Shown piece by piece: positions 14,401-52,900 of a stretch of DNA of 64,000 nucleotides. The first letter of the stretch is position 1, and every line of letters begins with the position of its first letter. Position numbers and translations under genes: made by a program. The notes under the pieces were generated by a model. That model searched no databases, was not told the DNA's origin, and saw nothing but the letters and a program-made list of their open reading frames with translations. The stretch covers positions 59,148,001-59,212,000 of the forward strand of contig OZ287748.1 in NCBI GenBank assembly GCA_965649765.1, in the 5' to 3' direction. The stretch is from Bispira polyomma (Eukaryota).

Positions 14401-17400
14401 ATTGTTTGGTTAATAGCAGGTTTATAAAATAGAAGAAACATTTCTATATATAAATATATCACAATAGGAACAAGAATTTTTGAGAGTGAAAATACGCTTA
14501 TAAAATCAAATATTTTGATAACAGAAATTTGGATAATAGAGGTTCTACTTGTACATACATATTTAAATATATTGTGAAACTCACCACCTACAGGTAACAC
14601 AAAAGAGGGAGTAGGTAAACGTTTTCCTTTGTAATATAAATTGAATACCATGCCATTTTTACTGGTGTTCACTGGAACTCTGTTCTTATTCTGATGTAAG
14701 AGACCAGACTCCACTTTGTAATCCTGATCCCCTTCCTGTGCGCTCACCAGGTGCAGGATTTCATCTGATAAAGAAGGGCTGTTTATAAACACCGTCCCTG
14801 GTCCAGCTAAATAGTAACTACCCTCCTTGACTAGTTGGATTTCACACAAGAAGGTGGTCCCGGTTGTACCAACTATTTGCCCAGACTCCTCAACATATGG
14901 ATTTTGTATGTAAACCATTCCATTGGTGCCTGCTGTTTGGTGAGAGCCAGCTGGGTTTACACTGACAAACTCTATAGGATAATCTCTCACACAGGCATAG
15001 GTGATATGAAAGATTCGAGGATTCATTATTGTGGTACCATCGCTCTGTTCCTTTGAACACTGTGTGTAGATTTCCCATGGTAGAGGAGGAGTTTCCTTAT
15101 TTTTATAAAAGGTATCAACATCAAATTCAATATTGTCGAATATCAAGTCATTTCTCTGGCGAATTGCACATACATTTTCCATATTAAGCCATTGTAGATC
15201 TGCAGATTGATTGGTAGATGGCATACAATATTGTTCATAGGGATGACTTTTTAACTTTATTTCCAGAATGCTTATTAGCTTTATGTCCGAAAGATATCTG
15301 CACAGTGGTCGGCGATCTGACAGGTAATTTCTGCACAACAACCGTGTTTGAAGACCTGTTGTGATTAAAATAGGTATTTTGTTATCTTGTACTATTATAA
15401 TTTATACATGTATGAAGACATTACTTCAATTTAAGTACAATATTGTATAAACAAATGACAGACACATATTCTGTGACCTGGCGGATAACATACTCACTTG
15501 ATAACGTAGAAGACCTGAGTTTGACTCCTAGTCTATGGTGATAAGGTACTAGGTACAGACAGATGCAGGACTTCCCAAAGTCTGTGTACTGCATATAATT
15601 AGTTTTCTATGCCGGTAGGCGGTAACAAAGTAACAAAGTTATAAATTCAACCAGACAAAGACACCTTTTAGTTACTGTCAAATGCACTCATAACTAGGCA
15701 GTCAAACAGAACACCTCTAGTAACTGAATATTTAGTCACTGATTAAAAAGAAAGCAACATGCATAATTACATAAAATAATACAAAATATATCAGAATATA
15801 AATTTAATAAACGATTGCACATTTTTGGGGGTTCCAAATCCTATGTTAAACTTTTGAGGTGACAGTCGTGACATCATATTGGTACCAGAGAATTAAAATC
15901 TACCCAAAAGAAGGTCTTGTGCTTACCTGTGCCATTAGTTGCATTACAGTAACTGGTGTCATCCAGGCACATATCTAATCCTTGAACAAACACAGAGTCT
16001 GCAGAAGAACATTGTTGTTCAAAGGAGATGTTGTTTGAACATGTGTTTATGATATTACACGACTTACAAGACTGGAAATTTCCATCATTCACTTTTGCAC
16101 ATGAATAAACACACTGACCTGTTGATGAAGAAAAAGGTGTACAAATATAGTGGAACCTCTACTTAATGAAAAAAATCCAGTTAATTTTATTATGTTAATT
16201 AATTGAAGTTTTGTATTTTCTCCAATAAAGGCTCTCTCTCTCTCTCTTATTACAGCCACTCCTTGTTATAAAGATTTTACATCACTAAATGCCTATATTT
16301 CTACAGGTAGACTCCACTAAAATATTAGGGAACATTGTTACATCTCTTCTTCAGGTAATGTTGAAAACGATATAACAAACATCATTGACCTATAGTTACG
16401 AATCAAGATATTCTGTAGATAGTTAACTGTATACATTACTATAGATATGTTACAACACCACATATCAAAATTGTTTTCTTGATTATTAGCTCTCTTTTGC
16501 GAAAATGCAAAGCCCCAGCGTTTATTACAGAAATGACAGTAGATACATAAATATATGTAACGCCAAAATGATGATACATGAGAACAAAAAGAAACAGCTT
16601 TGTAACATAATGTAACGATTCGTGTATTTTTATATTTTTATAGATTCTGTATGTAGACTCCTATTTCTTATCATATCTTTTATAGTCTATTGTATTGTAC
16701 ATGAAGTCACTTTCTGCTCAACTCACAGGGTTATGTCACACACTGTATGTATAAAAGGGCAAATATACATGTCCGATTTTGCTTCCGAATCTGTCATCCG
16801 AAAACATTTAGATATAATAAAATAGAGAAGTAGGATACACCTCCGAAGTAGAATACACCTCCCAATTTGGAGCCAAATTTTCGGAATCGGTCAAAGGTTT
16901 TTTTGCGGATGATTGGCAGGAATATGAAGTAATTTCCTTGCTTTTGAGATTTTTTTTAAAGCATAAATACTAGAAAAATCAGCCAGTTTTTCGGAGGTAG
17001 TGTATCTGCAAATTCAGACGACGGAAACTGACGTCAGATGACGGATTAGGAAGGAAAATCAGACAGATATATTTGCCCCTTAAATCTATTAAGCTGCTGC
17101 ATAAAGATATTATTTTACAGAAAAAAATCAATAGTTTTCAAAATTATATTAGGTAAATAAATATACTGCCAGTAAAAGGCATCAAGTACCAGTGCATGTA
17201 TTGTAACCGAATCCCTGAAAAACTGCCCACCAAGTAAACTGTCATCAGCTCTACTTTGTCTGGGTAAACTACCAACCAGGTGAACTGGCTACCACTCAAA
17301 TTTACTAAGGACAACCATAACATTAACGACCAAAGTAAAAGTAGTATACCACCTCTTTTAATCTGTGAAGTTATGTCATAAATTTAAAAAAAAATTTTGA

Positions 17401-19405: not shown

Positions 19406-21902
19406 TACAAGTGAGGCAGTAGTCTACATGTCCAGAGTTAATTCAGTCCATGATTTTGGAGCATCAGTTGTTAAAATGTATGTTTGACTGATTAGTCATT
19501 ATGTGCTTCTCAAACTTTACACCATTAGTAAATTTAATCAAGACATGTATGTTCTTGTTATTGGTAATAAGTAAAGTCCCACTTTTTTAAAGTTCTTTTT
19601 TTTTTGGTAAAAATTAGAAAAGGCTTTTGTTTTACCATATTTTAGGCATATATTAATAGACAGGACTGTGGTCTCCCATGGCATAGTAATTTGGGAGAAT
19701 TGGTCTGGTGATCGCAAGATCCCCAGTTTGACTATCGCTGAAGCCATCTAGGTTCATTGGTCTGATAACCTCTTTGGGTAAGATGTTAACATGTCATTAC
19801 CTATTGATGATAACTGAGGCACTATCTCTTTCAGGAAACCATTGCCTTGGAGGATGGTATAGCAATAGGGCGCTACATCAATGCTTCAATAACAAGCAAA
19901 ATGTATTTTGGGAGCCTATAACAGGGCTAGGGTCAAATCCTAAAAGGATACAAAGTTATGAACTAAGGTGGCAGTTGACCTGTATGTATGATGCTGAAGC
20001 TGGTTGGCTGTACTTGCGTAGTTAAGAATAGGTTTAAGTAGCACTTTGAATATCAGATAAAGGAAGACAAATGCATGGAGTCTAAATCTGGATACTATAG
20101 AATACAATCAAATGAACCAGCTGTAGTTTTTACATCACTGTACAGTATCACTAGAACTAGGACTAAGCTCAGTCCAGGGCTGGTATTCACAGACATCATT
20201 TTTCCTAATTATTTGTCTTAGCAAAATTTAATGGCTGAAAATATTGTTTCAACTGACTTGAATGGCTGATATTAAGAAGATTCTTGAAATAGCACTTGTG
20301 AATACTTGCCCAGATCATAAATCATCTCCACCACTACCGTAAGTACAATAATACCAGCATCTCTCTCATGGTGTTTATCTTTTAGTAAAATTACTGCAGT
20401 TACAAGACTGATTCCGTGGTTGAACCTATCATAAAAATTGGTTCTGGAATTAAAAAGGTGCACTCAATGTTTTATAATATAATGTTAGCATACAATACAA
20501 TGTATAGGTTTTTACTAGTGTTTATATTCTTTGGCGCCTGTACTTTTCAAACAGAATTTGAGCTCAAATTTAGACTCCAGTCAAATAAACACTATGTGCA
20601 ATTCCTGTGTGGTGAAATAACCTATACTTGTAGTCATTCATATATAAGAAGGCTTGAAATGGAAATTTGAGCTTGAATCTGAGTTGATTTTGAATTTGAA
20701 CATGCGTTGTTATCCATTTAATGGCTAGTATTTGGACTATACTTGGATAGTGTCCCTTGTTGATGGATTTTCATCTATTCAGGCACACTCCACATGAATT
20801 AATGCATTTACAACTACTTGGTTAACTAAGAATTTATTAAAACAAAGCACTAATTCACAAGTTATAAAAATGTGGGCTAGTAGAATCTGTGAACCCTGAA
20901 ATACAATGTTTTGTACAATACAGACCAGAATATAAAATGTGTTGTATTACCCAATGCCCTTGAACATGTACACAAAAACATTATATTAATGTCTACCCTT
21001 TTGTCCCAAATCTTCAATATTTTTATGTTAATTTTGTGAAACAAAACTGATAATAAAAGTAAAACAACTCTTATGATGGGTATATTAACAGTGTATGCAT
21101 ACTGAACTCACATTGTATTGCTTATCTTCTTGGGTAATATAATTTCAAAATAATATAAACATTAACAGAAGCAAAACTTATGTTTCCAGTTGCACCAGCT
21201 ACTAAATGCATGCAACTCTGTCTAAACCAGGATTACATGATAAATGCAAAACATTACTTTTATCAGTGAAAAACTCCTGACCATAATATGTTACTTAGTT
21301 ATTTTAGTGTCTATTTCAGAAATACACCATTTTGAATCAGTGTAAAGTTAGATGTATTGGGTTTTAACGTTATCTTTGTAAAGAAAGTTAGAGCCTAGAG
21401 GTGGACAATATATAAAGCATTAGTAGGTGCTTAACTTTTGTAAAATTAGAGTTAATATATGTTCTAATACATTTTTAAAAGATGAAAACGTTGCAGTCCT
21501 TAGTGTATTTGATGCATAAGCCTAAGTGTTTTTTTATTTCTACAACTTAAAATAGTAGGACCCCCCACTGACCAATGTAAAATAGATTCTTATTCTTCTG
21601 TAGAAATATGTCCCTTATACAACTGGTATGCATGTTAAATACAGCACAGTAAACCCTTCATTAATAAACACCTCAGAATAGTGAACACCTATTTATAATG
21701 AACAAATAAAGGTCCTATTTTGCCACTAGTGAATTGTACAGTACTAAACAGTGAACACTTCCTCACATAGTGAAAATATTGGCTGACTTGGGTGAGTGGT
21801 CACTATTATTATTCAACACAAAATTTTAGGCCAACACTGGCCATGACATTACAACCAGTTGCAAATATTTTTAAGCCAAAACATTTTTTGTAACATTTAT
21901 GA

Positions 21903-22677
21903 TCAGTTATTGTAAACACTATTTTCAACCTTTTCTATGTATGCTTCATCATCCTCTGGTTTCAGTGATGCTAATTCCTTCTGTCTATCTGAAACATTCT
22001 CACCACCTTCATAAATATCATTATCCATCATCATTTCTATGACCTGTTCTTTCTTTTCTATGCCTACTGTATCGGGTTCCAGCTGAATGTATTCATGTTC
22101 CTCTGCTGTAACATTTCTGCTTAGATCCAGGTACTCATTGCCATTGTAGAGTACATTATCTATCATGCCACTTGTATGGTCACCTTTTGGTAAAACCTTT
22201 CCATTATTGTTGTCATACACAGCCTTCTCCAGGTCAATCTCTATGGCCTGTTCTTTCTGGTCTAAATCTGTTATACCAGGTTCCAACTGGATGTATTCAT
22301 ATTCTTCTGTTGTATAATTTCTGCTTAGATCCACATCATCTACCATGTCATTTGTATGGCCACATACTGGTAAAGCCCCAACACTGTTGTTGTCATACAC
22401 ACCTTTCTTAGTCATCCCATTGGTTGGTTCCTCCAGTAATTCATTGTAGATATCATTCTCCACCAGACCATCCATTTGGTTTAGTATAATCACAGATGCA
22501 ATAGTGTTATTGCCTATGGGTGTTTTATAATGTCCTGCCTTGTTTGGTTTGGCATAGTCTTTGCTGGACAGAGGTATAGGAGAATGTCCTTTCTGGTTCA
22601 TTTCAAGGTTGTCCTGGTTGTAAACTGGGTTTGCTAAGGACACAGACTTCTCATTTTCATTCAAATTCTTGCGGTGC
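21903..22677 (-). CDS. Gene B exon 6, cytoplasmic Tyr-motif tail
   Basis: NPVY, DYAKPNKAGHYKTP, ENDIY, EYIQL x2, DNVLY, DNDIY, terminal VENSVYNN*. Confidence 0.85.
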
Positions 22678-25600
22678 CTACAATGTTTTAAATTTGTGTT
22701 GATATAGTTAATTCCTTGAAATATTCAAAAGAAAAAAAAAACCTGAAGAATTTTCATGCACATTTGTGTCATGTTATTGTCCTACATATTAAATCAGAAA
22801 TGTAGAGACCATTATCTGCAGTCAAATGATATATAGTGTATGAAGAATATCGGTAGCATATCACAAGAAATGAACATAAAATCAGTTTAATTTGGACACT
22901 TTATCACATTTCTGATATGTTAGACATTTGGACATCTACACAAAAGTGTCTGCCTCATTATCTATTCAAATACAATTTCACTGGTTTGTCTAAAGATTCA
23001 TTAGAACAACATTTTTTTTTTCATTTCAAGCATTACTAAGGATTGATTTTGAATGAACTGTTGTGACTATTAAAAGGTATTTGATTTAACTCTACATTTT
23101 TGTATTCCGTGGTGCCAAAAACAAGCCTTGGAGACACCCCTTCTTTTGTTTGAAATATAAGTGCATCTCATATGCTATTGCTTTACCTCTTGTACAGACA
23201 CACCCCAGTGATGATGGCAATCACCACAAGAATGGCCACTACTGTTGTCACCACAGCTGTTGCCACAACTACAAACACAAACAATTATCCACAATATTAT
23301 TATACAGGTATGATTAAGGGGGTACGGCTGATAGTTTTGGTACTGATGGAAAGGTTGGGCTCCAAAAAACTATTAATCTGATGATATTTTTTAAAAGTCT
23401 GATGGCTTGATATTTACAAATATAAGCGTCATTGTTGACGAAAATCACCATCGCCGACTTCTTGTAGTATGATGTATCAAAGCCAACTTCATATTTACAT
23501 GTTCAGCACACTCAACATAATATTTTATACATTTACGACAGTCAATCTTTTACCCCTCAAACTCGTGCCTGTGGGAAGGCAACGGCTCGTATATATCCAT
23601 ATTTCTCAATGACTTCTGACAAAGTACATGTAACGAAAAACCAAAAATATGTATTGAAATGGCCAGTTAAGTTTACTTGAAAAAAAAAACACCTTTGAGG
23701 TTAATTGTTGTACAGCTTAGAAAAGACTGTTATAGTTATTTCAAGTGAATTATGTTTAGTATTATTTAACATCAATTATGCCAACAAATGTGACGGATCA
23801 CTCCAGTTATATTTAACTTAAATATCTCATTCTAACTTGTGAAGACAATAATGATTATATTGTTTAATTTTATCTATAACAATTGTACAATTCTACAGGT
23901 TTTACATATGATAATGTGCTAACATAAAATTATAATTTTCTCTGCTTTGACAAGCAAAACGATAGAAAATGTATTTTACTTATCTCTCAGTGACCCAACA
24001 TTTTAATATTTAAATGGTCAGTTAATTTAACTGAAAAATGTAGAAAACTTAAAAAAGATAAAACACCTGATGAAGATGCTTTAGTATTCTCAGTTTGACC
24101 CTGTTGCTGATCAAATTGCCTATCCTCAGTTACTGAGTTGTTTATGGTGCTGCTCATAGGTGGCATATCAGTTGATGGACTTGTTGACGACAATGACGTT
24201 TTTTGCTGGCTTTCCTCAGTTACCAAGTCATTCGCAGTGCTGCTTATAGGTGGCATATCGGTAGCTGGACTTGTTAAGGGCAATTGATCTCTATCACCAT
24301 AGGAAATATTTATATATCCTGTATAACCTTCCAGTACTGATAAAAACAAAGATTAAAATTCATTAGAATATGCATGTAAATGAGAAAATCAGATAATTTA
24401 CCGTATGCAGAATAAATAAAGCTTAATTTTATATTTCCATTTGACAAGAGTTTATGAGCATTCATAGTACTATCATATTACTATATATAATATCGAAGAG
24501 ACACATATTTACTAATACAAAACATGGATATCTTGATGTCAATGTATTGTAATTTTCTTTTCATTAAGTTATATATTTTTTTCTATTAAAAATTCTGTTC
24601 TAAAAACAACACAATGCATGGAAATATGAATAGACTAGTATAATAAATCATGTATACAATTTTATGGATTGTATTTCTTTGTTTAAAAATACCACTTGGA
24701 AAGTTGACAAGCTCTAAAACTGTATAAAGCTTTCTCATTGTAATATTGACACCATAATATTGAAATATTGAGTAGCTAGTGAATCACTCACCACCAATTG
24801 GCAGTAGAAAGGATCCTGTAAATTCGTTTTGCCCAATGTAGTAAAGGTTGAACATTTTTGCACTAAATGCTGTTGTAACCATAATTCGTTTTCTGTAGTT
24901 CACAAGACGTGGCTCTATGGTGTAACTCTCTGTCTCAGGGAATGTTGCATTTATGACAAGAATATCATCTGAATCAGACTCCCGACCACTAAAAGCCGTT
25001 CCTGGACCACCAAAATAATATCTACCTCCCTGCTGAAGATCTATCTGGCCCAGGTGCTTTATATGTACACTGTATTTTCGATTGATATCCTCATTTCTTT
25101 TCCTTCTTTGATGCAATGGATTTGACTTTTCTACATTATACTGCACATACACCATTCCTTGAGACTCAGACTCTGCAGTGGTAGTGGCATCATTTATACT
25201 GTAGAATTGTATTTCGTAATTTTTCACACAGGCAAAAGTAATATGAAAAATTCTGGGGTAAGAGCCTTTAACTGGTCCTTTTTCACAAATGTCTTGACCT
25301 TGACTATTATAGGCATCACTGGTATCAACATCAGTGGTATCGTTACTATCTTCGTTAGAACCATCTCTACTATCACCTGTATCTGCACTACCAGTTGCTT
25401 CACCTGTCTCTTCAGAACTGTCTGTTTTCTCTTTTGTGTCTGACTTACTAGTTTTCACTTGGTATTCCCCATCAACAGGAACTTCAGGACTTTCAGAATA
25501 ATCTTCACCACCCACTTCCTCAATTTCTGTAGAATGCATTTTCGGACACTTATTGTAAATATCCCATGGTGCAACATAATCTTCCTGCTCATTAAAAGTG

Positions 25601-28600
25601 TTGATAGTAAAATCAACGTCTTCAAACATTAAGTCACTTCTTTGTCGTACAGAACAAACGTCATCTGTATTAAGCCATTGTGTTATGTTAGTGGTACAGT
25701 AATTGACATGATGTTTTAGCTGCACTTCCAGAATACTTATCAGCTTGACGTCCGAGTGGTATCTACACAGTGGCCTGTCATCTGATAGATATGATTCAGA
25801 CAGCAACCGTGTTGAAATAGCTGCAAAGGTGAGACAAAGAAGAAATAATATAATACCCTAAATATAGTATCACGGACACCTGCGTTGAAGAGGTAAGGAG
25901 AAAATGGGAGAAATTCCTAACACCCCTATATAGTTTGTGTTAAAGTAAATAATTTTACAGAGGATAATCTCTTATAAGAAAACATTTTGCTCAAACAAAG
26001 AAAGGTTGAGAACAGACAACAAAGACAAAAAAAAAAGTTTTTATTTTATATCTAATACACCTTTATATTCAGACAACCAAAAATGAAAAAAATAGAGGCT
26101 TTGAGGCCAATGTGTAAGCTAAATAAAACCAATACTAACAGTTTTCACTAGTATCACTGCACGCTGCCTTTTCATCTGTGCTACAATTCCCTTCAAAGAA
26201 AATGCTATCACCAGGACAGTCCATCTCTGAGAATTGTGGACTACAATTGACATATTTGTCACAGGACTTACAAGACAGGTAGAGTCCATCATCTAACTTG
26301 TTGCAGGAGAATATACAGTGTCCTGAGAAACCAAATAACAGATTGTAAACTAACTGGTATATCTATATTATCTGTTAATATACCCAAACAATGTAAGTAA
26401 GTATAAAACCTTTATGACACAACATCAATATGCCTTAATGTTTGTATATCAGGTGCATTAAATTATTTTATACGTGCATCAGTAAATCAGTGCAACAAAA
26501 TGCCAATTAAAACATTAATTAGACTATGGTTCTCATTTTAATTTATCTTTAATTATTTATATTAATAGCATAGTTTGTGTAATAATTTGTAGTTGGTACA
26601 TTTGTCATGTTCTCTATCTTTAAAAGTTGATTTGTTTTCAGAAAGAAATTTTCATTTAATAGCACAATATGTACAATAATAATTGAGCATCTTGAAAGTA
26701 ACAATATTTTCCTTATTCAGAAGTCTGCCACTCTTCTGCCATTGTATATTACAGTGTATATTTATGTAAGCAGGGGACAGTGCTCACATGATGTCTTATC
26801 CAGGGCTTAAACTTAAATCTAAGACTTGTGTCTTTTCTTTCGGTAAAAAAAAGCCACAAATTTGGTCTTAGTCATAGTGATATTTCCAAAAGCAGCTGAG
26901 CCTAAGTTTTAGCTTAGCCAGAGGTTTAACTTAAAGACAGGTTGGTAGTGGGCTTAACTTTACTGTAAAAATAAGAATAACAATTTCAGTTGTGCAGTGT
27001 ATAAAAAAAGTTAAACATAAAAATATAATTTTATGATGTAAAATATCAAACAATCAAATTAAAACTATCTTAAATCAAACCACTGGATTACAACTGTCTT
27101 AAAACTTAAAATATTATAAAATGTACTGCTTTGTGTTTGAAATTAGGCATTTTGTATGTTCAATTGTTAAATTCTTAAAGTTTGTAATAAACCAAAACTT
27201 AAAAAAATTATTTTGTCTGTTTCAAATTTATTGGGATTTTGTAACTTGTGATTTTGTTCAACAGTGCTATTCCAATCATATTTTGGAAAAAGTTAGTAAG
27301 AACAGATAGTACCAGATTTATGCTGACCATTTCTTTATACAAAGGGTTTATCTTCGTAAGCCACAATTTCAACTATGATAATTTTTTTTTAATGTTTTCA
27401 TTCACATAAACATATATTGAGGACATTTTACATAAGACATGGACAATTACATAATACAATTTCACATCATTAGAATGCACAAAAACAAAAATTGCAGTGT
27501 ACTTCATATTGCATGTTTCTTTATCATTCTTTTGACCACTTCAGTTACTCGCATTAACAAGAATCACAGAGACAAAATGTTCATATTTTTTAGTTCAAAT
27601 TCACCATTTAATAATTAGTGGAGTATAGATCATAACAATAATAAATATCACCCAGGCATGCTTGTCTTATTACACATCTTACGTTAAAGTATTTAGTGAA
27701 ATAGCAATTATTAAAAACACTTGATGAATGTCATTGTATAGTATTCTTATCCAATTGATGAAATTGTTTCCAAAAAATTGTAAGATTCTAAACATTTTAA
27801 TAGGGGGAAAAAACATTCTACACTGTCAAAAGCTTTCTTAAAGTCTACTGAGACCAGATAACTCGGTAAATATTTCTGATCAACATGTATCAAAATGTCT
27901 TTAATAACTCTAACATTTTGTCCCATATATCTGTCTTTATTGTATCCTACTTGGTCATCATTGATTAATTTTGATAGTACCTGTTGAAGTCTATTGGATA
28001 AAGCTTTAGTCCTTATTCTGTATTTAGTGTTCATCAAGCTCACTGGCTTCCAGTTGCGAAAAAGGCGCAGATCTTTACTTTCATTTGGGATCATATTACT
28101 TATACTTCTCCTTTGATCGGGCGACAAGGTACCATTTTAAAAGTATAGTTAAAGCTTTCAAAAAGTATGTCTGGCCAAAAGAATTAGTAAAAGTTGGCCG
28201 GAAAACCGTCACCTGCCGGTATTTTATCATTTTTTAATTGCATTAAAGCTTTAGAAATCTCTCCCAATTTGAGATTTTCATCACATATTTCTTTTTCTAA
28301 ATTACTTAATTTTGAACCTGTTAGACCACTCAAAGGTTTGGTGTTCGAATACTGAACATCGGTGATTTTTGAGGAATATAGATCTTTGTAAAACATTTGC
28401 TGTCCTGCAAGGATATCGCTTGGATCTGTTAGCCTATTGACCATTATTTCTGATTAGTTTCTTGATATATTTAGTGTTGCAATTAATTTTTTTCTAAATT
28501 AATAAAATACTTCGTATTTTGTTCTCCTTGTTCTGCCCACTCTGCCTTAGTATAATTAATTCTGTTTTGGCATTTTCCAAATCTTCCCAATGTTTTTTTT

Positions 28601-31600
28601 TTTTTTTTATAATATTCTGTCATGTAGGTTGAATTCTCGATTATTTTTTGCTCTTTCTCTTTTTTCTCTTGACTTTGTCTTCGAATATAAAATAGTTGTT
28701 GTTCGTACCTGACATTTAACAAAATCCCAAAGTGTATTATTATTTTCTATCATGACGTCTGTTTTGATTGCTTCTATTTAGGTCTTAATCATAGCTATGT
28801 AGCTCTTATCATGAAGCAGTTTATCGTTGAATTTCCAATAGCCAGGACCCTTTTTCTGAGTATTCAGTATCTCAATATTTATTATTATATGCTGTGATCT
28901 GACCCATTCCCCAGTTTAATGCAACAATTTATGACTTGATAAGAACTGGACCAACCAAAAATCCAACCTTGACTGTACTAACCCTCCCTTAGTCCTTTCA
29001 CATCTTGTATATTTGTAATCTTTTGGATTTCTTAGCCTCTATATGTCTACTTACGTATGTTCTTCCATTAAGCTTTCTAAGTGTTTTGTGTATCGAGAAT
29101 GTAATGCTTCTGTTGAATTAAATAACTCATCTTTATTTATATTTTGGAAGTCATTCTTTATCATTTTTAAGGATAGATGGTATTTTTAGGTATACTGACA
29201 CATGATCATTGTTTTTCTGTTAATCACAAAACATAAGTGAGCCATATTTTACAACTCTATGTTAACATTCAAATGTTAACCACCTAAATATATATATATA
29301 TACCATGCTTAATATGTTTATGACATTATCCAACTATGTTTAAGACATTTCTAACTTTTATTGTACTATTGACCAGTAAAAAATATATAAACAAAATCCT
29401 GTTAGCTTCAATAGTACCACCTAAGTGTATCATGTCTTTCAATATTAATTTGTAAAATGCTAACTGTTTACACATACTTATTGGTTATTGTTTATGAAGT
29501 TCGCCAACTACATTTTATGGTACAATTGTTAACTTGTCAAAGGCCATATCAACAAAAGAATGTTATATTTAATTATACAATAGGAGTGTGTCATAGTATG
29601 ATGAATACTTATAATTTTAAATCATTATATTTCTGAACATTATAATTATAACAAAGAAAGTGCACACAGAAGAGTTTACTCTCTATTGGTCCAATATTGA
29701 TACTGTGGTCACACTGGCCTTACGTTTCGATTACGCACAAAAAAAGGCTAACGTAAGCTAAACGTAAGTAAAAGGTAGTAAACGTAAGTAAATGTAAGCA
29801 AAACTGGAATAAGATGGTACCCTAAGTTTAGTTATCTCCTTTTTATTAAAAAAACGTCTTAATTTTCAGACTGCTCGAATTTTTTTTTACGTTTTTAGCC
29901 GTTTGCTGAACATTTTTTCTGGAAACGGGTGGTGCGCTCGCGGCAAACGGTAGGCACGTATTCAATGCGTATTTGAAGTAAAGGACGGGAATAAAACAAA
30001 CTATACCTAAAAATAATATTAAAAGCGAGGAGAATGAAAACGAAACGGGTTTACAACTGTTAAAAATGAGGAAAACGAGTTTAAAAATGTGGCTAACGTA
30101 TTTCTAAAATGTGGCTAACGAGGCTAACATATTATTAAAACGTGGCTAACAAGTTAAACATAATTGAAACGGCTATTAAAACTTATTAAATGTGTGCACA
30201 AACGTGTACAGATGCATACTAAACGTGCACAAACGGCCCATACAATTAATTCTGGCCACTTTTTCCCATTTTCCCACATTTTTTTATTTTGTTTTCTCCC
30301 GTTTACGAAAAAACAGTAACGCGAACGTACTCAGTGTGACCACGACATAAGACCCAGAGTTGCAGTGTCCATTGACTATAAGTTAAGATATGAACCAAGC
30401 AATGCTAAAGCCAGAGTTGCAGTGTCCATTGTGTATAAGTTAAGGTATGAACCAAAAAAAAAGATGTTTGATGGCAAATATCATTGAGAAAGCAAACTGC
30501 ACTACAAGTGCCTTTGCTCTCATTAGCAAGTCACAAGTATCTGATATTATTTTAAAGTGCAAATTGCATCAATTGCCTATGCTTGTAGGTCGGATATAGT
30601 GTTGCTTAGTTGTCCCACTACACTATAAGTGCCTTGGCTTTAAGCATTAATTAATAGTTTCATTATGTAGTATATTTACTAAGTTTATGAATGTGTGAAA
30701 GACTTAGGATAAAGACCACATGTATATTGTTTGGGCCATTTATTCACTACCATTTATCACATTTACAATAATTACTTTTAGTACTGTTAGTCTGGTTAAA
30801 ATACTTTTATATACATGTGTGTATACACACACCTACTTATATGGTTATTTTAGCACAAGTATGGGCTGATCCCATCACATACTTATAATACTTAAAATAC
30901 TAAAACATTAACTAAAATTATACAAATTGTTTACTTAAAGTATAAATCACAGACTTAAACATGATTACATAACAGAATATATATTAGGTCCCCCTATACA
31001 TTATGTTTATATACTCGACTAATTATTATAAGTGAGATGTACACAAGAACCCAGATAAGGACACATACCATGTATCCCTATTATATCTTTTGTATTTAGA
31101 GTGAAAGGGTATTTTTTACCATGTTGTCAATTCAGGTTGGAACTGGATTGAAATGGATTTCCACTAGTATATACACCCTTTTAGCAGACAAGTACCTTGT
31201 TTCAGTCTTAATGACAGGATTTTTAAAATATTTTGTAGATGGGAGGTATCTGATAGGGCAGGAGTAATGGTAACCTTTTTGACTGTCCCTGATAGTTCCT
31301 GTACTTTTCATCTGTATTCTAAAACTCCCATCATCCTCAAAATTTACTAGCATTGCTGTCATAATTTCATTGGCCCTTTGTGATCTGATGTTTAGGTGTC
31401 ACCACCTAATTGGCCACCTTCCCATCTGCAGATTTTAACTCACTCTGATTCTATTTATAGACACTAATAACCCGACCTCTGTGCACCAGCTAATATGATT
31501 ACATAGATAAAGGCCCTCGTACTGCATTAAGTTTGCATAAGGTAGTGCCACGAGGTGTTTATCTATTATAAAACCCAACCCAACTAACACAAATTTTTGA

Positions 31601-32745: not shown

Positions 32746-32899
32746 AATACAAATATAAAGTAATATCAAATAGTATACTTCAATCTACCTTAGGGGAAGT
32801 GACTATGATCATGGATTAATGTTTCTAAAAGAAGAACAGGGTATTTTCCAAGAGTCTACTTATTTGTACAAAATGTGAAGCCAAATTACCATTTTAACC

Positions 32900-33672: not shown

Positions 33673-36600
33673 TAGACCGCCACCTACACATAATAAATCA
33701 GGCGTATTAAAGCACCCACTTTGTTCTTAATATGTGAGCAGGGCACAATCTGAAAAAGAAACGATTATACACAGGTTATGTTTTAAGGCTGTCCCTCAGG
33801 CCTGTTTTTTTTTTGCCTACAAAATACTGAAAAAGTTGGGCTTTATTTATCAATAGTTAAATTGAAATACCCTAATCAGCAACCACAAGATGTTAAACGG
33901 TCAAGTTTATGTAAAGTTGTTTCTTAGTAATTCTTGTAAAGCATTATATATTCCATCCAAATGTAGTTATCAGTGATCGATGTTCGATGGTCTGCCATAA
34001 CTCTTTGCTGGTCTCACCAATAACCTACAAGCGGTGGCTGGCACGAGCACAATCTTTGATTACTTTTGAGGAATCAATCCTCAATCATCTTGCCAATTCG
34101 ATAAAACTTTGCATAAAGATGTACCACCAATCTTGCGATTAGCCACAGATTGATCACAAGAAAAATGGACACCCTGCCTAAAAAACAGAATCGTAGGCAA
34201 TTCTTGGTCGTCAGAGCCTCTCAGAGTTCATGGAGGTCGAGCACAGCTCGGATGTGGCCACAAAAAAAAAAGGGCATTATACATTACCGACAAGACAATA
34301 CCACAAAACAAATTAGAAATAAGATAACATATAAAGAGTATATAGACTGCTCCCTACACTACATGACATGGAAATTGACCTTGGAGAATTCTAAAAAAAA
34401 ACACAAAAAAAACAAAAAAAAAACGTCAAGACAAAAACCTCAGTTTTGTTGATGTATATATTTGATATGGATTATGTAGTGTTGTGCTATGTGTTTGATG
34501 TGAATAGTACTGCCGTGCTGTTCCAAATTTGTTTATAGTGTCTAATCTTAGAATCCGACCACTATGACATCATCATAATCTTACCATTACATAACAGCCA
34601 AAGTATGTCAAAGGAAAAATCAATTCCTGGAATTCCTGAGCACATTTGTGGAATCTGCTGATGTGAATAGCACGGCAACATGGGGCCCTGCTGTATCAGT
34701 TCACTATAATCACACATACCGCCTTAAACTTTTAGGTACCTTTGGTTTTATTCTTCTGTCTATCACTCGACCCCTATCGTGACCAATGCTACCCCTAGCT
34801 AGCTATTGTTAAGAATCCTCCATATTGATTTTCGGTACTGAAGGTGACACACCTATATGCTTCAACCCACCCCTTCCCCTTAACAACCACCGGTATTACT
34901 GAGTTAGATGATATTTTAAGGCTTAATTTCCTGAACCAGATAGCTTCTTCAGTTGCTCCAGTAGTCTAACCACCAGATGGAGGATTTGAACCTGGGGCCG
35001 TGTCGAGGCGGATCCTCCCTTCATTATTCTTCCTTCTGAGTTCACTGATACAGGGTTCCAGAGTAGAAAGAGGGCTCTGTGAAGTGGGATTCGACCTTGG
35101 CTAGGCGACTAGGTGCCGCAGGCCCTGGGCTCTCAATTTCGACCGATTGGGGTTACACTGCTTAATAAAATGCAAAATATGAACGTGTTGTTAACATATA
35201 GTTAAAATGATATGGTTAACTAGAAACAGAGTGGTATTTCTAACACTGGTCCTGAAGGACCAATTCAGCTGCATTGCTGTATTGTCAACAGATGGTTAAC
35301 AATATTAGTATGTTATCATTTGCCATAATGTGGGCTGGTTGACAATTAGATTTGTTCTATTGTGGCTAGCTCAGAACAAGTATTAACTCACTACCATGAA
35401 ATATTCAGGGAGAAAATGTGCTACATGCTGGGATAATGTATACCAGCATAATGTTTAACTAGTACAGAATAGCCTATATATAATGTGTATGTTGTGATTA
35501 TTTTTATATATTTTTATCTGTGCTTATTATTACGTATTAATATTTTATGTATTCCCTATTGGGTTCTTTAAAATCCCTTTTAAAATTTTAAATCCTACCT
35601 CTGTTAAATTTTTATACCTGTATATAGCATTACTAACTTGTATGTATATTAAAATTCTCAAACCATCTTTTACTGTGTTCAACGAATACACCTTAGCTTC
35701 TGCCAAACTCACTTTGGTTTAACTCCCACTAACTCCAAGGTCATACACTCTGACCCCACAAGGTCATTTATTGCTAGCCATATTTGCAAACTCTTTATAC
35801 TATTGGGAACTGTGTGTAAAAAGACCAAAAACAGTACATATTATCAAAGTGACCATAAAATAGTCCACAAAACAACTTCAAGTAGAACTTTTGACTTGCA
35901 TATGCAAACTTTGCTTACGCTTACATCAAAATCTTTACCAAGCCAGAAATAGAAATTCACAAAAAAGCTAAGCAAACAAATATTACTTTAGTTTTTACTA
36001 AAGTAAGTCTTGGAGGATATTTAAATAAACAAGAACAGACTTTAAAAAGGCATCGCGGAGCTAGGTGAAGGCCTCTTTATGGAAGTCTTTTTATAGCTGT
36101 TATAATTATTATCTTTAATCAATTTTATTCTGTAAAAAATGCCACAAAATAGAGTAATCTGAACCAGAACTTTTATACCACCAGAACTTTTATACCACTT
36201 AAAACTCTTAAAGACAATAATTTTTTATTAATGTCTCATACTTACAAATTTGATTTTCTTAATTTTCTGTAATAAACCTGCATTTCAAAATGTCATATTG
36301 CAGTCACTATTGAATACTTTTTCATTAAAAAAACTAACTTTTAAACTAGAATAATAACATATATATATGATTTATCTCTAGGTTATATAGTTTTTGAGAT
36401 ATGAATGTAAAATCAATTGCCTTCCTCACAATATTGAGAATTATTTACATTTTCTATCGGAGCTGATAAACCAGGGTACTGGTTCAATTTCGATTCAAGG
36501 AATTTTTTTCCCTATTTCCCGCTTCTGCTGGACATTGACAGAGGCTTGACGAGACCTGACCACCTGGTTTCATAAAAAAAGATGCTTGTACCATAAACCC

Positions 36601-37210
36601 CTGTGCCAGAGACAAAGACGTCACTACAGACACAGAGGTAAAGTACTCTATATTGTTAGGATGGACCGATATCTTCACTCCATTGGAATCTGACACCACA
36701 CGAGGCAGTGGAGTCGAAATATTTGACTTGTCAGCTATCCACTGTTGGTAGTAATAGTCATTTGGTCTGAAGTAAGGTTTCAGGATTTGCATACAAGGTC
36801 CAGCACACAGTGAGTTGATCCATTTGATATCTGGCACATTTGATATGCTACACACAATGGTAGATTATGGTAAAACGATTATTTGAGACGAACAGTTATA
36901 TGGAGTTTTCTCCAAAAAATATTTCAGAACAGCTCTACAGTATTAAAGCTTACGTTGCAGAGTATTCTTCAGTAAATGTCTGTGTAAATTCAGGGTATTA
37001 TTCAAAGAAAACAATTACCAAACAACAGGACAAGGCCATTAATGACACAAATAAGCACGGTGTGTGCAATATCATAAATGTTTCATATGGATATGTCAGA
37101 TCTTAAACTTGTCAAAATGATGTATTACTGATTATATACACTGTTTTCTACCATTTCAATGTTACTCCATCTTGTTGTATCCATGTTAATCTGACTATTA
37201 TTTATAGTCT

Positions 37211-37736
37211 CTACGATATACTCTTAGAATCTGGCAACTGTAGCTTTTGATTTGCATTAGGGCCGGGATGAAGATCAGATTTATTCTTGAGAACTAAGTA
37301 CACATTGTCTGACTTGATACCATCGGTACCCTCATCTGTTACAGTCCCTTGTTCTTTTGTCAAGGTAGATGCTTCATGCACATCATTGTCCATTAAATCA
37401 GCTGGATTTTCTTCCATATTCCAACCATCACTACTGTAAATATCATTTACAATCAATCCATCTTCATCTATTATCATGGTATTCTGAACTGTTCCATTGT
37501 TTGAGGGTGGTGTGCTATAGACACCAGCTTTGTTTGGTTTGGCATATTCAGTACTACCAGATGAAAATGCACTTGATAGTGCTGCACTTTTTGGTAATGA
37601 TGCATTTAATTTGTGATGTGATTCAACATCTGCTACAATTACACTGGCTGAGGAAATAGAGATGTTACAACTAATATCTTCACAGTTGTATACTGAGTTG
37701 GCAATAGATTTATCAGTGTCAATGTGTTGTTTCTTC
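37211..37736 (-). CDS. Gene C cytoplasmic tail exon
   Basis: NSVY, EYAKPNKAGVYSTP, VNDIY; conserved end EMVENSVYNQ* lies in another frame (stop at 37125). Confidence 0.75.
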
Positions 37737-38141: not shown

Positions 38142-38223
38142 CTTCTCAGAACAACAATTGATACAATTAGAATGGCTGTTGCAATCATGATTATTACACC
38201 AACTGTAGCCCCAATGATCACAC
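38142..38223 (-). CDS. Gene C TM exon GVIIGATVGVIIMIATAILIVSIVVL-RR
   Basis: 82 nt, phase 1-2; GxxxGxxxG. Confidence 0.8.
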
Positions 38224-38723: not shown

Positions 38724-38984
38724 CATTTCCTGCTTGCCGACTGGTTTCAGCTTGTCCTCTGTCCTGATTTAGATTATGTCTCAACTCTGGCTCAGTAACT
38801 AGCACTGTGTCTGTGCTGTATGTTGTGTGTACATCAACTCTAGGATCAGTAGTGATCATGTGGCCATCTGTGGGTTCATTATTAGATGTTGTTTCCAAGG
38901 ATGCAGATGTACTGTACACTTCAGTGGATGTTTGTTGGTTCTTATGTAAACCACATGTTACTGTCATTCTACCATTACCAAGAG
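38724..38984 (-). CDS. Gene C Ser/Thr stalk exon
   Basis: 261 nt, phase 1-1. Confidence 0.75.
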
Positions 38985-39413: not shown

Positions 39414-40129
39414 CTGTGAAAGGGACTATTAAAGCAGTCTTTGAAGCTGTATCTTTGAGCTGCAGTTTAATTTCTCTGTTCAGATTAGTGGCAGTAATAT
39501 TTCCTTGTGGAGGTGGGCTGCTTCCATTATAAATTCTTTCAAAGCTTGTATCTGAAATTTGAAATTCACCATTTCTCAGCAGTGCTTGGGGTTTTCCATA
39601 TGTGACACTGGTATGTCCTTCTATAAACAATTCACAATAATACTGACCGCTGTCATTCTGATCAGTATATGTGCTAAACCAGTTGTTGAAAGTTTCCCGA
39701 GATGAACTATAAAAGTATAATTTATAAATATCCTTGCTATTTGTAAGAATTATATAGTTTCCTGTCAAAGATGTATTCTGGTACAAAGATATGGCATGTT
39801 CAACACACTCATACTGTACATGATGCAGTGTGTCAGCCATTGTAGTTGTTTCTGCACAGTAATTGGTATTTTCCCACTGTAAACTGTTTACTTTTATGTC
39901 ATTCAGCTGTCCAGGAATAAACTGAATAACATCTACGATGTCAGTTCTTTTTCTAAATTTGCAAACATGATGATATTTAAAAATGTCTGAGAGTAATAAA
40001 TGTCCATTACACTGGTAAAGAAATGGCTCTGATTTTTCTACTTGCACTTCATAAACTATGTGGAGCTGGAGTTCTGTAGGTGTAGGGCACAGCAATGCCA
40101 GGTGTTACATAACACACCTCCCATGTTAT
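39414..40129 (-). CDS. Gene C central ectodomain exon (frameshift near 5' end; in-frame cryptic acceptor at 40073)
   Basis: 229-aa open frame, distantly similar to A/B/D (CKFRKRTDI, LHHVQYEC, LIVPFTG). Confidence 0.7.
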
Positions 40130-40838: not shown

Positions 40839-41009
40839 CCGTTTTATCTATTCCACATGAGATACTATTATGGAGACAGTTCTTTGCTGCATCATCCCAC
40901 ACTGTCTTGGTGCAGGTTCCGTTATATATTATATTATGTGCACAGGTAACATAGGTGTGACAACCAGTACAAGATTGGTAGTAACCATCTGGTAAACCTG
41001 AACAGTCCC
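40839..41009 (-). CDS. Gene C ChtBD2 exon (most canonical copy)
   Basis: DCSGLPDGYYQSCTGCHTYVTCAHNIIYNGTCTKTVWDDAAKNCLHNSISC. Confidence 0.85.
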
Positions 41010-43011
41010 CTGAAAAATAGGTATATATCTGGAATAAGTTAACAAATTCTTCTTTAGGAAAACTAGCCATCCTGTCTACCAGTGGTGCTGTTGCAAGAGA
41101 CAACCACTACAGTCAGCTACACTTTGAAATTGTAGCAATAAATTTTTTAATAGTTTGAAAATTGATAAACAACAATTGACTTTGTTCAGTCAGTTATATT
41201 ACAGCAATGTTATAAGTAAAAAAAAAGTTGGTAGTAGTTATTTTATGCCGCTCCTGGTAAATGGAAGATGCATCTTACTAATATGTGCAGTCAGACGAGC
41301 CAAAGTGCTTTCAAAAGAAACCCAAAGGCATACCATTTCAGGCAGGCTTATCCTCATTAAAGGTTCTCTTAATAACCCTTTACATTGTCCTTAGTAACCC
41401 CATTATGTACCTGGACTATATGCTATTGGTTAACTCCATGGATGGTGTGCGATGCCTGGTCATCAATTTGGACGCTATAGAAATCGTTCATTTAAAATAG
41501 CAGTACTAATAGTAGTAAAATCACACTTGGAAGAATCATAGTTTGAAATAGCCAAGTTTTACCTGTATTCACACAGTCTTTAGGTCTTTAGTCTCTGTTG
41601 TACAGAATCCCCAGTGAGAATTGTCAGTGTAGCACCAACCTTTACCTTTGTTGAAAACAGTGGGCATGTACATCATATGGGTTGTATTAATCTTATAACA
41701 AATATTGTATTGAAGACAACTGAAGACAGATTTAGATGTATTTGGCTCAACAAATATTTCAGCTTGCATATGTGATAAATTAGGGCATCATACTCCTTGC
41801 AGGAATGAATTAAGAAACTAACAAAAAATAACACACAAAAAATTATGCGTTTGTATACATCAGCATGACACTAAAATTAATCCTTTGAATTTATTGCAAA
41901 GGACATTATTCAGTTATCCTATTCAACTAAATTTGGTTGTTACTACAAATTTGTTAGTAACGAGGCTATAATAAAACTCTCCACTGTTCCAATTAATTTA
42001 TGAAAATTGGCAGACTTTACCTGTGTCTCTGTTACAATCAAATGCTTTACTTCTGTCACAAAAACTACCAGCAGTGGCATTTCCAGCCTGCACAGGAATG
42101 AGACATTCACCCCATTTCTTTCCCTGAATAGGAAAATATTACACATAGTTGTCATGAAGTATGCAACATATGAGAATAACTTTAAATGTGAATAATACTT
42201 TATTTAATCAGATACTCCATTCAGTGGTCAGTCTTTTACTGCAGAAAGTTGTTGTGAGAAGTTTTTACACTCTAAAATACAATTGGCAGCACTGAAAGCA
42301 CTAAGACGGCAATGCATTTATCATTTTATTGTTGATTTTATATTGAGTAAATAATGTTGTGTTATATTTTGGAAGCAACCATATATAATTTTGCGAGCAG
42401 TCATTTATTTTGCGCCAAAATTACACCTAAGAAGTTATACACCTAGAGCTCAATGATATTAAGTTGCATATGAAGTTGCATGTCCTGCTATGTGTATTCA
42501 AGGTGTACCATTGTTACAGTTTATGACTGCAAGGTTGTCGACAAACTGAATTTTTGCCCCTCTTGTCTGTATACTTTAATCTTTTAGTTGGTATGGTCAG
42601 TAGAAATAGATGATTACCATGTTTCATTAATCCTTTATATTTTGAAATACAACGGTGTTGCTTGCTACATAAAAATGACCAGAGCAACCCATGAATAACA
42701 CCAATTTTCTGCCATTTGCAGATCCACATTTAAACTGACCATTTTAAATCTATCAGTTTTGGATTATCAAAAGGATGTTCTTTTGTCTTGGCATGCAATA
42801 TAGATGATACTTAGGTGTTAACAAACTTACTTAGAATATAATTATAAGAATTTTCTATGTCTCAGCCAATCAGGTTCTTTGAAACATATTTTTAGCCAAT
42901 CAAATGGAGACAAAAATATAAGAAAAACAATCATTGTGAATACCCGCCCCAAACATTGCTTTAAACTAACTGCTTTGTTAATTGAGGTCAAATAAACATT
43001 TTCCCACATAC

Positions 43012-43169
43012 CCCTTGATAAGTCACAGTATGTGCACACCAGGGACGGATCCACGGACGGTTCCATCCTGCATTGGTACACTGGTGGTAGGTGTGTGCTC
43101 TATATGTAAAAGGAAACACACATGTTCCATTTGTCTCCGAACGCACACTCTCTATGATTGGGCAGCTTG
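43012..43169 (-). CDS. Gene C fibronectin type II domain exon
   Basis: GTCVFPFTYRAHTYHQCT...RPWCAHT matches the FN2 signature C.FPF.Y....Y..CT....WC; phase 1-0 as in gene D. Confidence 0.8.
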
Positions 43170-44084
43170 CTAGGTATTTAAATACAATACAAAAAATATA
43201 CCTTATTACCATTAGTATTGATAACATGTAACCAAAGTATTATGACACTATTTACATAAAGATATTCTACAATAATGTAGAGTTTCATTCATGTGCAAAA
43301 TATACTGCAACTTCGATAGGGAATTATAGAAGATAGGTTCACTGTGGATAGCAAAAATTTACCCAAGCATCACTTATATAACCCAAAAAACTTTTATAAT
43401 AGACTGAGCTATTTTTAGTGCCAGTAATAATGTTCTGAGAAGAGATTTCAAATTATGCCTGGTTGTAGAATATTAGTATAGCAAGGGTATGTATTGTGTG
43501 AGATAAGACATCACAATAATGACAGGTCTACATAAAGAAGTAGACAATCATAGACACATAATGAACAATTACAAACGTCGAATAATTTTAAGTATCCTCA
43601 CTCTGTAATTGTCTGACAATATCAATATAATTAACAGAAAAACAGAAAATGTAAGAATTGTTTAGTAATAGATATATATATTACCGGTACATATATCCAT
43701 TCTGTACTGTTGTTGCCTATTCTGGTCATTTGGAGTATTTGTAATATCTGTGTAACAATTCACATTTTTATGCCAAATCAATGAGATTACGTCATTACTT
43801 TTATCCAAAATATTTTTATCCCAAAATATTTATCACAAATAATCTCTATCAGCCAGTGGCAAGACACTCGCATCTTACCTCTGCCGCCATACGTTCAAAT
43901 ATATATATACAAGGAAGTGTTAAAGTATTTATATTTAAATCCATATTTGTATGAACCCAAAAATAGTTTACATACCTGTACAAGTAAGTCGTGCATGTAA
44001 TGCACACAAAAACATTGCAAGGAAGAAACCTTTCAATACATTTGTCATTATTTCCACCATAGTTTGGTTGAAATCTGTAAGTGT

Positions 44085-49050: not shown

Positions 49051-49388
49051 TTACCTTCGCCAGAAAGGTTATGTTTTAACCCCTATCAGTTTGTTTGTTT
49101 GCAATTATGGCCAAACATTGTGGAAGGCATGAGGCAAGGAAATTCTTGATGAAGATCTAGGAAAAGCTTAATGAGGAATCTGTATACTTATTGTGGAATT
49201 TAATGAGTAAAATTACTAGGAAATTGCTGTATTCATCAAATAAATTGTTCATCTACTTTTTGAAATGCTAATAAATGGCCGACTTTGACAGGTGTATTTG
49301 TGTAGTTAAGTGAAGCAAAAAAACAAAACAAAAAACGTTTGATTTGATACCCCATGGCGGAGGATTGCTCTCTACTGGGAGCTCTTGT
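49051..49388 (+). mobile_element. Helentron-associated (HINE/DINE-like) element in the 3' UTR of gene D
   Basis: 5' ttaccttcgcca..aggttatgtttt..gtttgtttgttt and 3' tggcggagg..gctctctactgggagc (subTIR + terminal hairpin). Confidence 0.6.
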
Positions 49389-49400
49389 CAGGACTTGTAT

Positions 49401-49971
49401 TTAATTATTGTAGATATCATTATCTACCATGTCCACAACGCTCTCCCTTGTGACTGCACTATAGGCACCTGACATACCATTGCTCTCATAGAGATCATTC
49501 TCCTGCAATTCTACCTCCTCAGCAGCTTTATCTGTAACACAAACATCAGCATCACATCGTTCTGTCTTTGCTATGGTGTTGGCATCAGTTGGCTTCTCAG
49601 GTTCAAAACACAATGGAGATGCACTTTCTGCATTGTTAGGTCTACCTTCTTCAGTTGTTGGGCCAGTTTGGTAGACTTTATTATCAACCATACCATTGAT
49701 GTCTCCTTGGTCAGCAATAGCACTGTCATTATCAATATCATTGTCTAGCAAATCTTGTTCAATATTAAGAACATTAAAATGATTGCCTCTTGGTTCTCTT
49801 GATTTCGGGATAGTGCAGATTCCTGTTTTGTTAGGCACAGCATATTCAACAGTGTCTTCTGTTGCTATATATGCAGTTTCTGAATTGGTAGCTTGACTCA
49901 TATCTTCGGAGTTGTATACTGGGTTTGTATGCGATACAGTAGCTGGTTTGTCATTTACAGGTTTGTTCCTT
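49401..49971 (-). CDS. Gene D cytoplasmic tail exon
   Basis: NPVY, EYAVPNKTG, DNKVY, ENDLY, terminal MVDNDIYNN*. Confidence 0.85.
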
Positions 49972-52900
49972 CTGCAAACATGTAAAGGCTATAATTATCT
50001 GGAAATATGAGCTTTTGTGCCATTTTATAATTAACTTTGAATACATTTATGCCATGATATAAATAGTAACATATTCTACTGATTAAATAGTCAATTTAAA
50101 TAATCTTATAGATACTATATTGGTATTATCGATTTATTACTTTAGAAAGTTATTGTTAAATATTATGTGTACTTGATCAACGGAGTTTTTCTGTTGGTGA
50201 GGGTTAATGCAAGAGTGTTTAATATTTTTAGGATGAGTTGACTAAAACTTCTTACCGTCTGATGAAGCACAACACTCCTATTACAGTAAAGACACAGATG
50301 GCAATCAGAGTCACACCCACTGCAATGGCTATAATTGTACCTGGGACAGAATTTATGTTTTAAAGACCAAGAAGCATTAAAATAGCATGAAAATATTTTT
50401 AACAAAAAAAAAACAACCTAAATCACAAATGATTGATTACTTCCCCATCAATGAAGTCTAATTTCACCCTTGGATGACTGAAGATCAAATTATTTAGTAA
50501 TGTTACCCTCGACTTTAAATCTCCCACAGGTTACTGAATGTTACTGAAATTAATGGCTTATAACATTTTTAATTAAGCCTGGGCTTTCTTTTAACATGTT
50601 TTTCTCGGCCATATTTATCAGTCGTTATTTATTATTACCAAAGGTTTTCTTTCAACATATTTCCCTCAGATCAGATCAGACGTCGGCTGACGTTTGTTAC
50701 ACCATCAGAATTTATCAGTTAGGCACCCAAAAAATCGAGAGGTCTGTCGGATTTTTAAACAAAAATGGAGATTTAGTACATATCGGATGAAAAGAAGTGC
50801 TACATCGGCTAATGTCAGATCGGATAGGATGTTAATAAATCAGCCGAAGTGTGAATCTGCTGAAAAGAAGCCATGGACCTCCTTTCAGCATGTTTTTCTT
50901 GGCCGACATTTTCGGTCATTACATAATACTACCAAGTGCTTCCATTAAACATATTTCAGATCAGATCAGACATTGGCCGGCATCTGTTACACCAACAGAA
51001 TTTAACGGTCAGGAAGCGAAAAAATTGGCAAGCCGGTCCAATTTTTTTAGCAAAAAAAAAAAAATTTAATAATAAAATATTTAGTACATATTGGATGAAA
51101 GGAAGCACTACATTGGCCAACGTCGGATTGGCTCGGATGTTAAAAAATCGGCCCATTGAAAGGAAGCCCAGGCTAAGTCATGATTTTTATTCAATCACAT
51201 TTATTGTGACAAAGTACCAAAAACATAAAAATACATTCCTACCTGAAGACATCTTGTTTTTGCTGTCTATATTTGTCTGTTGCTGATTGCCAGAATTTGC
51301 ATTTTGTGTAGAAGTGGAAGATATGTCCATTGTTGGGGTACCACTGGTACCTGTATTTGCTCCTGTACTCATAATAGATGACTCTGTAGCACTAGTTGGT
51401 GCAGACACAGTTGATCCCATATTTAATGTAGTGGACTGTATTTCGGAAGAACTGGTTACTGAAGATGTTGATGATACTTGCTGGTCAGTAAACTCTGTGG
51501 ATATTTCGGTGGTTGTCTCTACTGTTTGTTTTGATGTTGAAGCATGTGGAGAACTTGAGGATGACATAGTTGTGGTCACTGTGGGTACTCCTTCACCACA
51601 CTTTATTTGCAATGAGCCTACTTCATTTTCTACAACTTTAATACAGAGAAAAAAAAGGTTCACACATTGTTTAACTGGTGTGTGATAAGTACTTCTCTAG
51701 GATATTTTTTGTTTGCACATATGTGTCCAAAACAATATAAATAGGTTTCAGTATATATGTGAATAACATGTGTGCCATTTTTTTTGCTTCTCCTATAATT
51801 ATTTTTCATATTGTAATGTACTTACCCCCGACTGGTAATATAAAATGTACTGCTACATTGCCATCATTTTCATCATTGGTGTACTGTACACTGAAGCTTT
51901 CTTCATCCATACCAGTATTGATGTGAATCCTTTGTAAGTTACTGATTACACCAGGTAATATATGATATTCAGTATCGCCATTAATGGCTTTTATTATAAT
52001 TTGGGAATTTCTATCAGCAGTTTCAAACAATGTTCCTGGCCCTCCAATATACAAATTACTAATCCCCAAAGATGTAATGGTGCATGTACCGTTTAACATT
52101 GTTATCTCATTACTTGGGCTATCATAAACACATGTGCTCCAGTTTTGAAATAATCCACTATGGCTTTCAATATACACCATGTCTGCCATTTGTACAGTTG
52201 AATCATTTTGCATTGAAATCACTTCCAACTTAGAAGGAGTCTTGCAAATATACGTCATATGGAAGATACGTGGATAATCTTCTTGTAAAGACGTTGTAGC
52301 TGTTCTATCAGAATCATCATTGTTGCTGCTTATTTCCCATTTTATTGAATATTTATTGGCATAGACTTTGTCAAAATCAAATGCGAATTCGCCAAACATT
52401 AAATCAGGTCTTTGTCGTATTGCTAATACACGTGAAGTATTCAGAGTTTCCAGGTATTCTGTAGAATTGTATGTACAGTTGTTAATGTAGTACATAGAAT
52501 CCTGCAGAACTAGTTCAATAACACTGAGCCTTCTAATTTGGTTGGAGTATTTACACAGTGGTTGAAGGTCTGACAGGTAGGTTTTGCAGAGAAGTCTTGA
52601 CTTCAGACCTGAAATTTAGGTTTTAGTAATAATTATTTTGAGCAAAACTAAAAAAAAGTAAACAGAATATAATACAATATTTCTCTTTACACTTCAGCTT
52701 CATACAAATGTTATCCACTAAGTAGAATACACATCATTAAGTTATGCGTTAAGTATGGTTCGGATAAATGAACTGCTTATCTGAATAATTATAATAGTTT
52801 TTTTAGTGAGACAAACAACAGCAGTCCACAGGGTAACCTCAGAAAGGGGTGACAGGGAAGAAGATGATAAATAATGAAAACAGCATTAGCATCTTTGGGC

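Follow-up and report, generated by a model that had tools for sequence, protein, structure and literature searches.

The window analyzed here is a stretch of 64,000 nucleotides from Bispira polyomma (GenBank assembly GCA_965649765.1, contig OZ287748.1, positions 59,148,001 to 59,212,000 of the forward strand). It is animal DNA with 34% G+C, spliceosomal introns, and retroelement remnants, and it harbors four tandem genes, A to D, each with one large ectodomain exon. The CBM14-type modules and the general composition point to an invertebrate. An earlier note on this DNA had described that exon as a conserved domain of about 250 residues without a recognizable family. The large exons of all four genes are encoded on the minus strand, with canonical AG/GT splice sites at the boundaries proposed in the note (14585-15355, 24792-25820, 39414-40129, and 51826-52608). 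In each gene the order is a CBM14-like exon, the large exon, a stalk, a transmembrane exon of 82 to 85 nt, and a cytoplasmic tail, with compatible phases. The transmembrane exon and the tail are present in all four genes, and together with the exon order the transmembrane segment gives a type I membrane layout. The exons are listed below; the lobes, which resemble rhamnose-binding lectin (RBL/SUEL) and CUB domains, are predicted.

Gene A
15927..16118, minus: CBM14-like exon; E 0.048, 14.2 bits (cut-off 22.1); tblastn finds the B, C, and D copies
14585..15355, minus: large ectodomain exon, 256 aa; predicted RBL/SUEL-like lobe ~14985-15353, predicted CUB-like lobe ~14586-14984
13601..13807, minus: domain end (last ~13 domain residues, with Cys), then a Ser/Thr/Pro stalk
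11965..12049, minus: transmembrane exon
10863..11497, minus: cytoplasmic tail exon, 13 Tyr

Gene B
26140..26322, minus: CBM14-like exon; E 3.9e-4, 20.9 bits against 22.1
24792..25820, minus: large ectodomain exon, 342 aa; acidic insertion and RRKR furin-like site; run contigs agree
24067..24336, minus: domain end without Cys, and Ser/Thr stalk
23187..23268, minus: transmembrane exon
21903..22677, minus: tail exon; NPxY, conserved YAxxNKxG, five NxxY

Gene C
43976..44060, minus: candidate signal-peptide exon, from a hydrophobicity and donor scan only
43012..43169, minus: first exon of an FN2 domain; Pfam fn2 E 9.2e-10
42021..42123, minus: second exon of the FN2 domain
41563..41795, minus: degenerate FN2-like exon; in-frame stop, 8-nt duplication, no Pfam match
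40839..41009, minus: CBM14 exon; E 1.2e-5, 25.8 bits, above the Pfam cut-off
39414..40129, minus: large exon, divergent, frameshifted near its 5′ end
38724..38984, minus: domain end with Cys, and Ser/Thr stalk
38142..38223, minus: transmembrane exon
37124..37736, minus: tail exon; frameshift near 37,215, ahead of the conserved terminal Tyr motif

Gene D
61883..62052, minus: first exon of an FN2 domain; Pfam fn2 E 1.5e-5
61313..61394, minus: second exon of the FN2 domain
60281..60466, minus: CBM14-like exon; E 0.003, 18.1 bits against 22.1
51826..52608, minus: large ectodomain exon, 260 aa; N-lobe 52235-52606 also folded alone
51243..51635, minus: domain end with Cys, and Ser/Thr stalk (48% S+T)
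50256..50340, minus: transmembrane exon
49401..49971, minus: tail exon; NPxY, YAxxNKxG, four NxxY

The unrecognized domain defines a real and conserved family of likely receptors. In A, B, and D the large exon (771, 1029, and 783 nt) is open and preserves the frame, and it carries the complete ordered set of seven motifs, as the note had observed. Local alignment against 200 shuffles gives z-scores of 81 (A-B), 53 (A-D), and 34 (B-D). The weak likeness noted for C corresponds to none of the seven exact motifs and to z-scores of 8.4, 2.4, and 0.8 versus A, B, and D. A hidden Markov model (HMM) of the seven sequences other than C nevertheless retrieves C (E 1.8e-8) as the sole further match among 2,848 six-frame segments. 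The continuation into the following exon also held, at approximately 13 residues, with the Glu missing from the C version. The size of about 250 residues fits A and D; B is longer by an acidic insertion of ~85 residues, and C is a frameshifted exon of 716 nt. Identity among the intact paralogs A, B, and D is 33 to 45%. The mean identity is 33% for residues 1-123 and 22% for residues 124-256. The ratio of nonsynonymous to synonymous change (dN/dS), which the note had proposed to compute, is saturated among the paralogs, as are the synonymous sites themselves. The paralogs are therefore old, with dN at 0.48-0.70 among A, B, and D.

Gene C is probably a pseudogene, judging from its sequence. The frame of its large exon changes shortly after the first cysteine. 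Contigs from all three sequencing runs equal the window across the three gene C lesions, with no differences and no gaps. The runs cover no more than two samples from a single study and may be the window's own source, and contigs drop variants. The match excludes a simple assembly slip and leaves room for an intact allele elsewhere. Splicing to a candidate in-frame acceptor at 40073 could restore the large exon, though no other lesion, at the cost of its first two cysteines.

Relatives outside the window are few. A phmmer search with one query protein (no profile) against 1.84 billion representatives gave five matches, four of which are real: they are ENA proteins with 27 to 44% identity, and three of them appear to come from another tandem cluster. 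The fifth (P0008) was dropped, as it is driven by a stretch of 32 residues with 10 repeats. The same exon end as in D is read through by two of the relatives, a hint of an intron position shared with it. No branch of the tree is well supported; P0005-P0007 fall together with D at 90/93, and the joint loss of Cys62 and Cys99 may therefore be a single event. A word-indexed search of 5.8 billion proteins had no match, which is weak evidence, as one such search also missed the four known relatives. Two profiles had no match among PDB sequences at E <= 10, the ESM Atlas returned nothing usable for A or D, and JGI metagenome contigs gave no confirmed locus. Pfam gave no accepted match to the large exons or their lobes. 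Its best hit over exons, alignment members, and lobes was CATSPERE_NTD1 (E 0.0095), on B only and below the cut-off. No description of the family or its architecture was found in a literature search that reached few subscription papers. The family is thus undescribed in the literature searched, and its members are likely cell-surface recognition receptors.

Structure models were computed for the large exon by itself and for the N-lobe of D alone. The best structural matches fall on two separate lobes. The large exon is predicted to fold into an RBL/SUEL-like lobe and a CUB-like lobe. The RBL topology as such is a beta sandwich capped by a helix, with two long loops, and the CUB domain as such is a jelly-roll beta sandwich of ~110 residues. 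The note had weighed a new fold against a very divergent lectin- or LamG-like module: a divergent lectin-like lobe is indeed predicted, while in place of a new fold the exon probably holds two eroded known ones. The LamG (concanavalin-like) fold, which spans about 180 residues, has no Pfam match and no chain among the structural matches listed. Foldseek searches of PDB and BFVD returned nothing at E <= 0.001. A fold of its own, for the whole exon or just the N-lobe, with a resemblance to RBL and CUB only through common beta arrangements, is quite improbable: the six top ranks belong to three unrelated protein groups that share one rare fold, they align end to end, and the register of strands and cysteines fits.

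In the N-lobe, disulfides Cys7-Cys43 and Cys18-Cys121 are predicted with RBL as the model. The hallmark of RBL domains is a set of eight cysteines in four disulfides (PMC2430599). Six of these positions are kept in A and four in D, and in the register used here nothing corresponds to Cys83 or Cys96. The sugar-binding residues compared were the Glu following the first Cys, the Lys of loop 2, and the PDPCPG/GTY loop. They are mostly lacking: the Glu is found in one of seven sequences (B, which itself lacks the Cys), the Lys in one of eight (with Arg in four of eight), and DPC and GTY in none of eight. By this residue comparison, the RBL-like lobe probably no longer binds rhamnose. Pfam SUEL_Lectin (PF02140) matches neither the whole exons nor the lobes taken singly, with E limits of 1 or 10, and the same scan recovers eight of eight bacterial SUEL domains. 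These controls are taken from large proteins of Bacteroidota; 8 of the 401 genomes searched have such SUEL-type lectin domains. Profile-profile comparison with bacterial SUEL was also negative, a weak test since most of these domains lack the outer cysteines.

Receptor-attached RBL/SUEL domains are known from latrophilin-1, EVA-1, and PKD1-like 2 (PMC2430599), which are 11 to 13% identical to the lobe found here. Unlike them, the cluster lobe has only four to six of the eight cysteines, a much longer loop 2 without the proline-rich motif, and no SUEL_Lectin match, and it is fused to a jelly-roll lobe within one exon. Tandem RBL-like domains also occur in the Plasmodium parasite proteins P113 and RIPR (L1/L2) at 6 to 12% identity (PMC7482062, PMC10794152), which in contrast to the cluster carry neither CBM14 nor a CUB-like lobe nor a tail with tyrosines.

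The C-lobe is less clear. Its best structural match is tied with a collagen-binding domain, and its CUB score ties with PPC, GOLD, and SIDT1 sandwiches. CUB ancestry is therefore not established. CUB domains contain two or four conserved cysteines within the domain. In six of seven sequences the lobe has a single one, with a possible partner in the next exon, to which a disulfide from Cys170 is predicted. This one-plus-one arrangement also sets it apart from the four cysteines of Kremen1, spermadhesins, Neto2, and the PPC/collagen-binding domains. Pfam CUB (PF00431) has no match, and hhalign against 30 bacterial CUB domains scores no better than 40 column shuffles.

Distal to the large exon are the CBM14-like and FN2 modules. 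The curated Pfam cut-off for CBM14/peritrophin-A (PF01607), 22.1 bits, is passed by C alone, with B, D, and A below it. C and D also have an FN2 domain, encoded by a pair of exons in each. A signal-peptide exon is plausible for C only; upstream of gene A, a signal-peptide-like reading frame lies at 20106-20199 (minus strand), with a poor splice donor. Gene B alone has the putative furin-like site RRKR (25096-25107, minus strand; residues 238-241), located in a loop of the C-lobe, and its ectodomain might be cleaved there.

On the cytoplasmic side, YAxxNKxG is present in all four tails and a juxtamembrane NPxY in B and D. The number of NxxY motifs exceeds that of shuffles in B and D and does not in A and C. 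No immunoreceptor tyrosine-based activation or inhibition motif (ITAM or ITIM) was found in any of the four tails. In the tail of A, a 135-nt tandem duplication (11212-11474) doubles the YAxxNKxG motif, and a frameshift near 10,920 takes the conserved Tyr motif at the C terminus out of frame (in the window sequence, outside the contig check).

Taken together, there is an about even chance that the four tandem genes encode single-pass proteins in which an RBL-like lobe without its sugar residues and a CUB-like lobe form the protein-binding core of a surface receptor for recognition and uptake. The distal CBM14-like tip, joined by FN2 in C and D, would capture ligands that bear chitin or belong to the matrix. 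The core may bind a protein partner through the invariant strand-4/loop-2 residues R65, R67, D69, F77, and W93, and the stalk would raise this head from the membrane. NPxY and other tyrosines of the tail could then recruit PTB/SH2 adaptors, whose roles at such motifs are established, leading to internalization or signaling.

The same folds could instead belong to receptors for structural adhesion, by which an epithelium is anchored to a chitin or collagen matrix (cuticle, organic layer of a shell, or gut lining), with NPxY connecting to the cytoskeleton and not to immune uptake. This somewhat unlikely alternative agrees with a tip that carries CBM14-like and FN2 modules, with the collagen-binding domain among the tied best C-lobe matches, and with the lack of ITAM and ITIM. 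Chitin-binding domains are reportedly common in shell-matrix studies, and the shell proteins Pif, whose type the note had brought up, and BMSP are said to contain them, as the cluster contains CBM14-type modules. The Pif type is a secreted protein with VWA, whereas all four genes here have a transmembrane exon and tail, and no VWA was found in the scanned reading frames, with the 5′ ends of A, B, and D still unassigned. A common fold, moreover, shows no function, and a copy with a frameshift, FN2 observed in no more than two of the four genes, and identity of 33 to 45% among intact paralogs resemble recognition clusters as far as the available text of PMC4361660 and PMC9546547 describes them.

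Among such clusters, Biomphalaria GRC/PTC1 and PTC2 are similar in that single-pass genes lie in a cluster and code for large ectodomains rich in beta structure and for long tails, with low paralog identity, little recognizable homology, and some non-functional copies (available parts of PMC4361660 and PMC7494358). The B. polyomma genes share the tandem single-pass layout, the large, predicted beta-rich ectodomain, and the long tail of the definition given in the accessible part of PMC4361660. They differ in domain content: against FN2, CBM14-like, and RBL/CUB-like parts stand FN3 in GRC and, in the text available, no known domains in PTC2 (PMC4361660, PMC7494358). The likeness to GRC/PTC2 (PMC4361660, PMC7494358, PMC10875847) and to Hydractinia Alr (PMC9546547) is one of layout.

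A polymorphic self/non-self receptor that binds in trans, variant to variant, as in Alr, is very unlikely. The parallels comprise tandem single-pass genes with one module per exon, a pseudogene, tyrosine-rich tails, and eroded folds that only structure prediction detects (all from the accessible portion of PMC9546547). The cluster has neither ITAM or ITIM nor Ig domains, and the long contigs listed for the exons of B and C have no differences in the three runs, which stem from one study with two samples at most and are assembled into contigs that drop variants.

The recognition and uptake reading turns an apparent orphan domain of 250 residues into a testable model with RBL-like and jelly-roll lobes, a chitin-binding-type module, and a tyrosine tail. 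A more specific version, an undescribed invertebrate chitin-sensing family, is unlikely. In it, a CBM14 tip would connect to a tyrosine-signaling tail via one new composite domain, whose RBL-like lobe is rebuilt so that a new invariant RxRxD/F/W surface replaces the rhamnose pocket and is held to the jelly-roll lobe by rewired disulfides. If chitin binding and signaling were true, the genes would represent a new class of invertebrate chitin or matrix receptor, to our knowledge a poorly known area. Other unannotated transmembrane clusters may then also hide eroded folds visible only by structure search, such as the snail resistance loci reported, in the portion available, without known domains (PMC7494358). 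The surprise is limited by the fold, which is probably not new. The accessible part of PMC8878817 mentions rotifer proteins of the membrane that have SUEL domains.

Several further elements lie between and beside the genes. An intron of gene D contains a retroelement remnant (53577-58932, minus strand; RVT_1 E 2.6e-8, phage-integrase SAM-like E 1.3e-5), presumably of the DIRS-like tyrosine-recombinase type, with an internal tandem duplication (55476-56619 and 56622-57736, 92% identity). LINE-type remnants are located upstream of gene D (62623-63999, minus strand; zf-RVT E 2.4e-8) and upstream of the gene B CBM exon (27750-28746, minus strand; RVT_1 E 5.3e-12). Between the end of gene C and the gene B CBM exon, an open frame of 126 aa (36487-36864, minus strand) and an exon-like stretch (35713-35809, minus strand), with no real Pfam match, could be 5′ exons of gene B or a remnant. 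Two plus-strand open frames rich in Ser, Thr, and Cys (2-448, 149 aa; 3465-3962, 166 aa), which have no Pfam match, are possibly exons of a neighboring gene.
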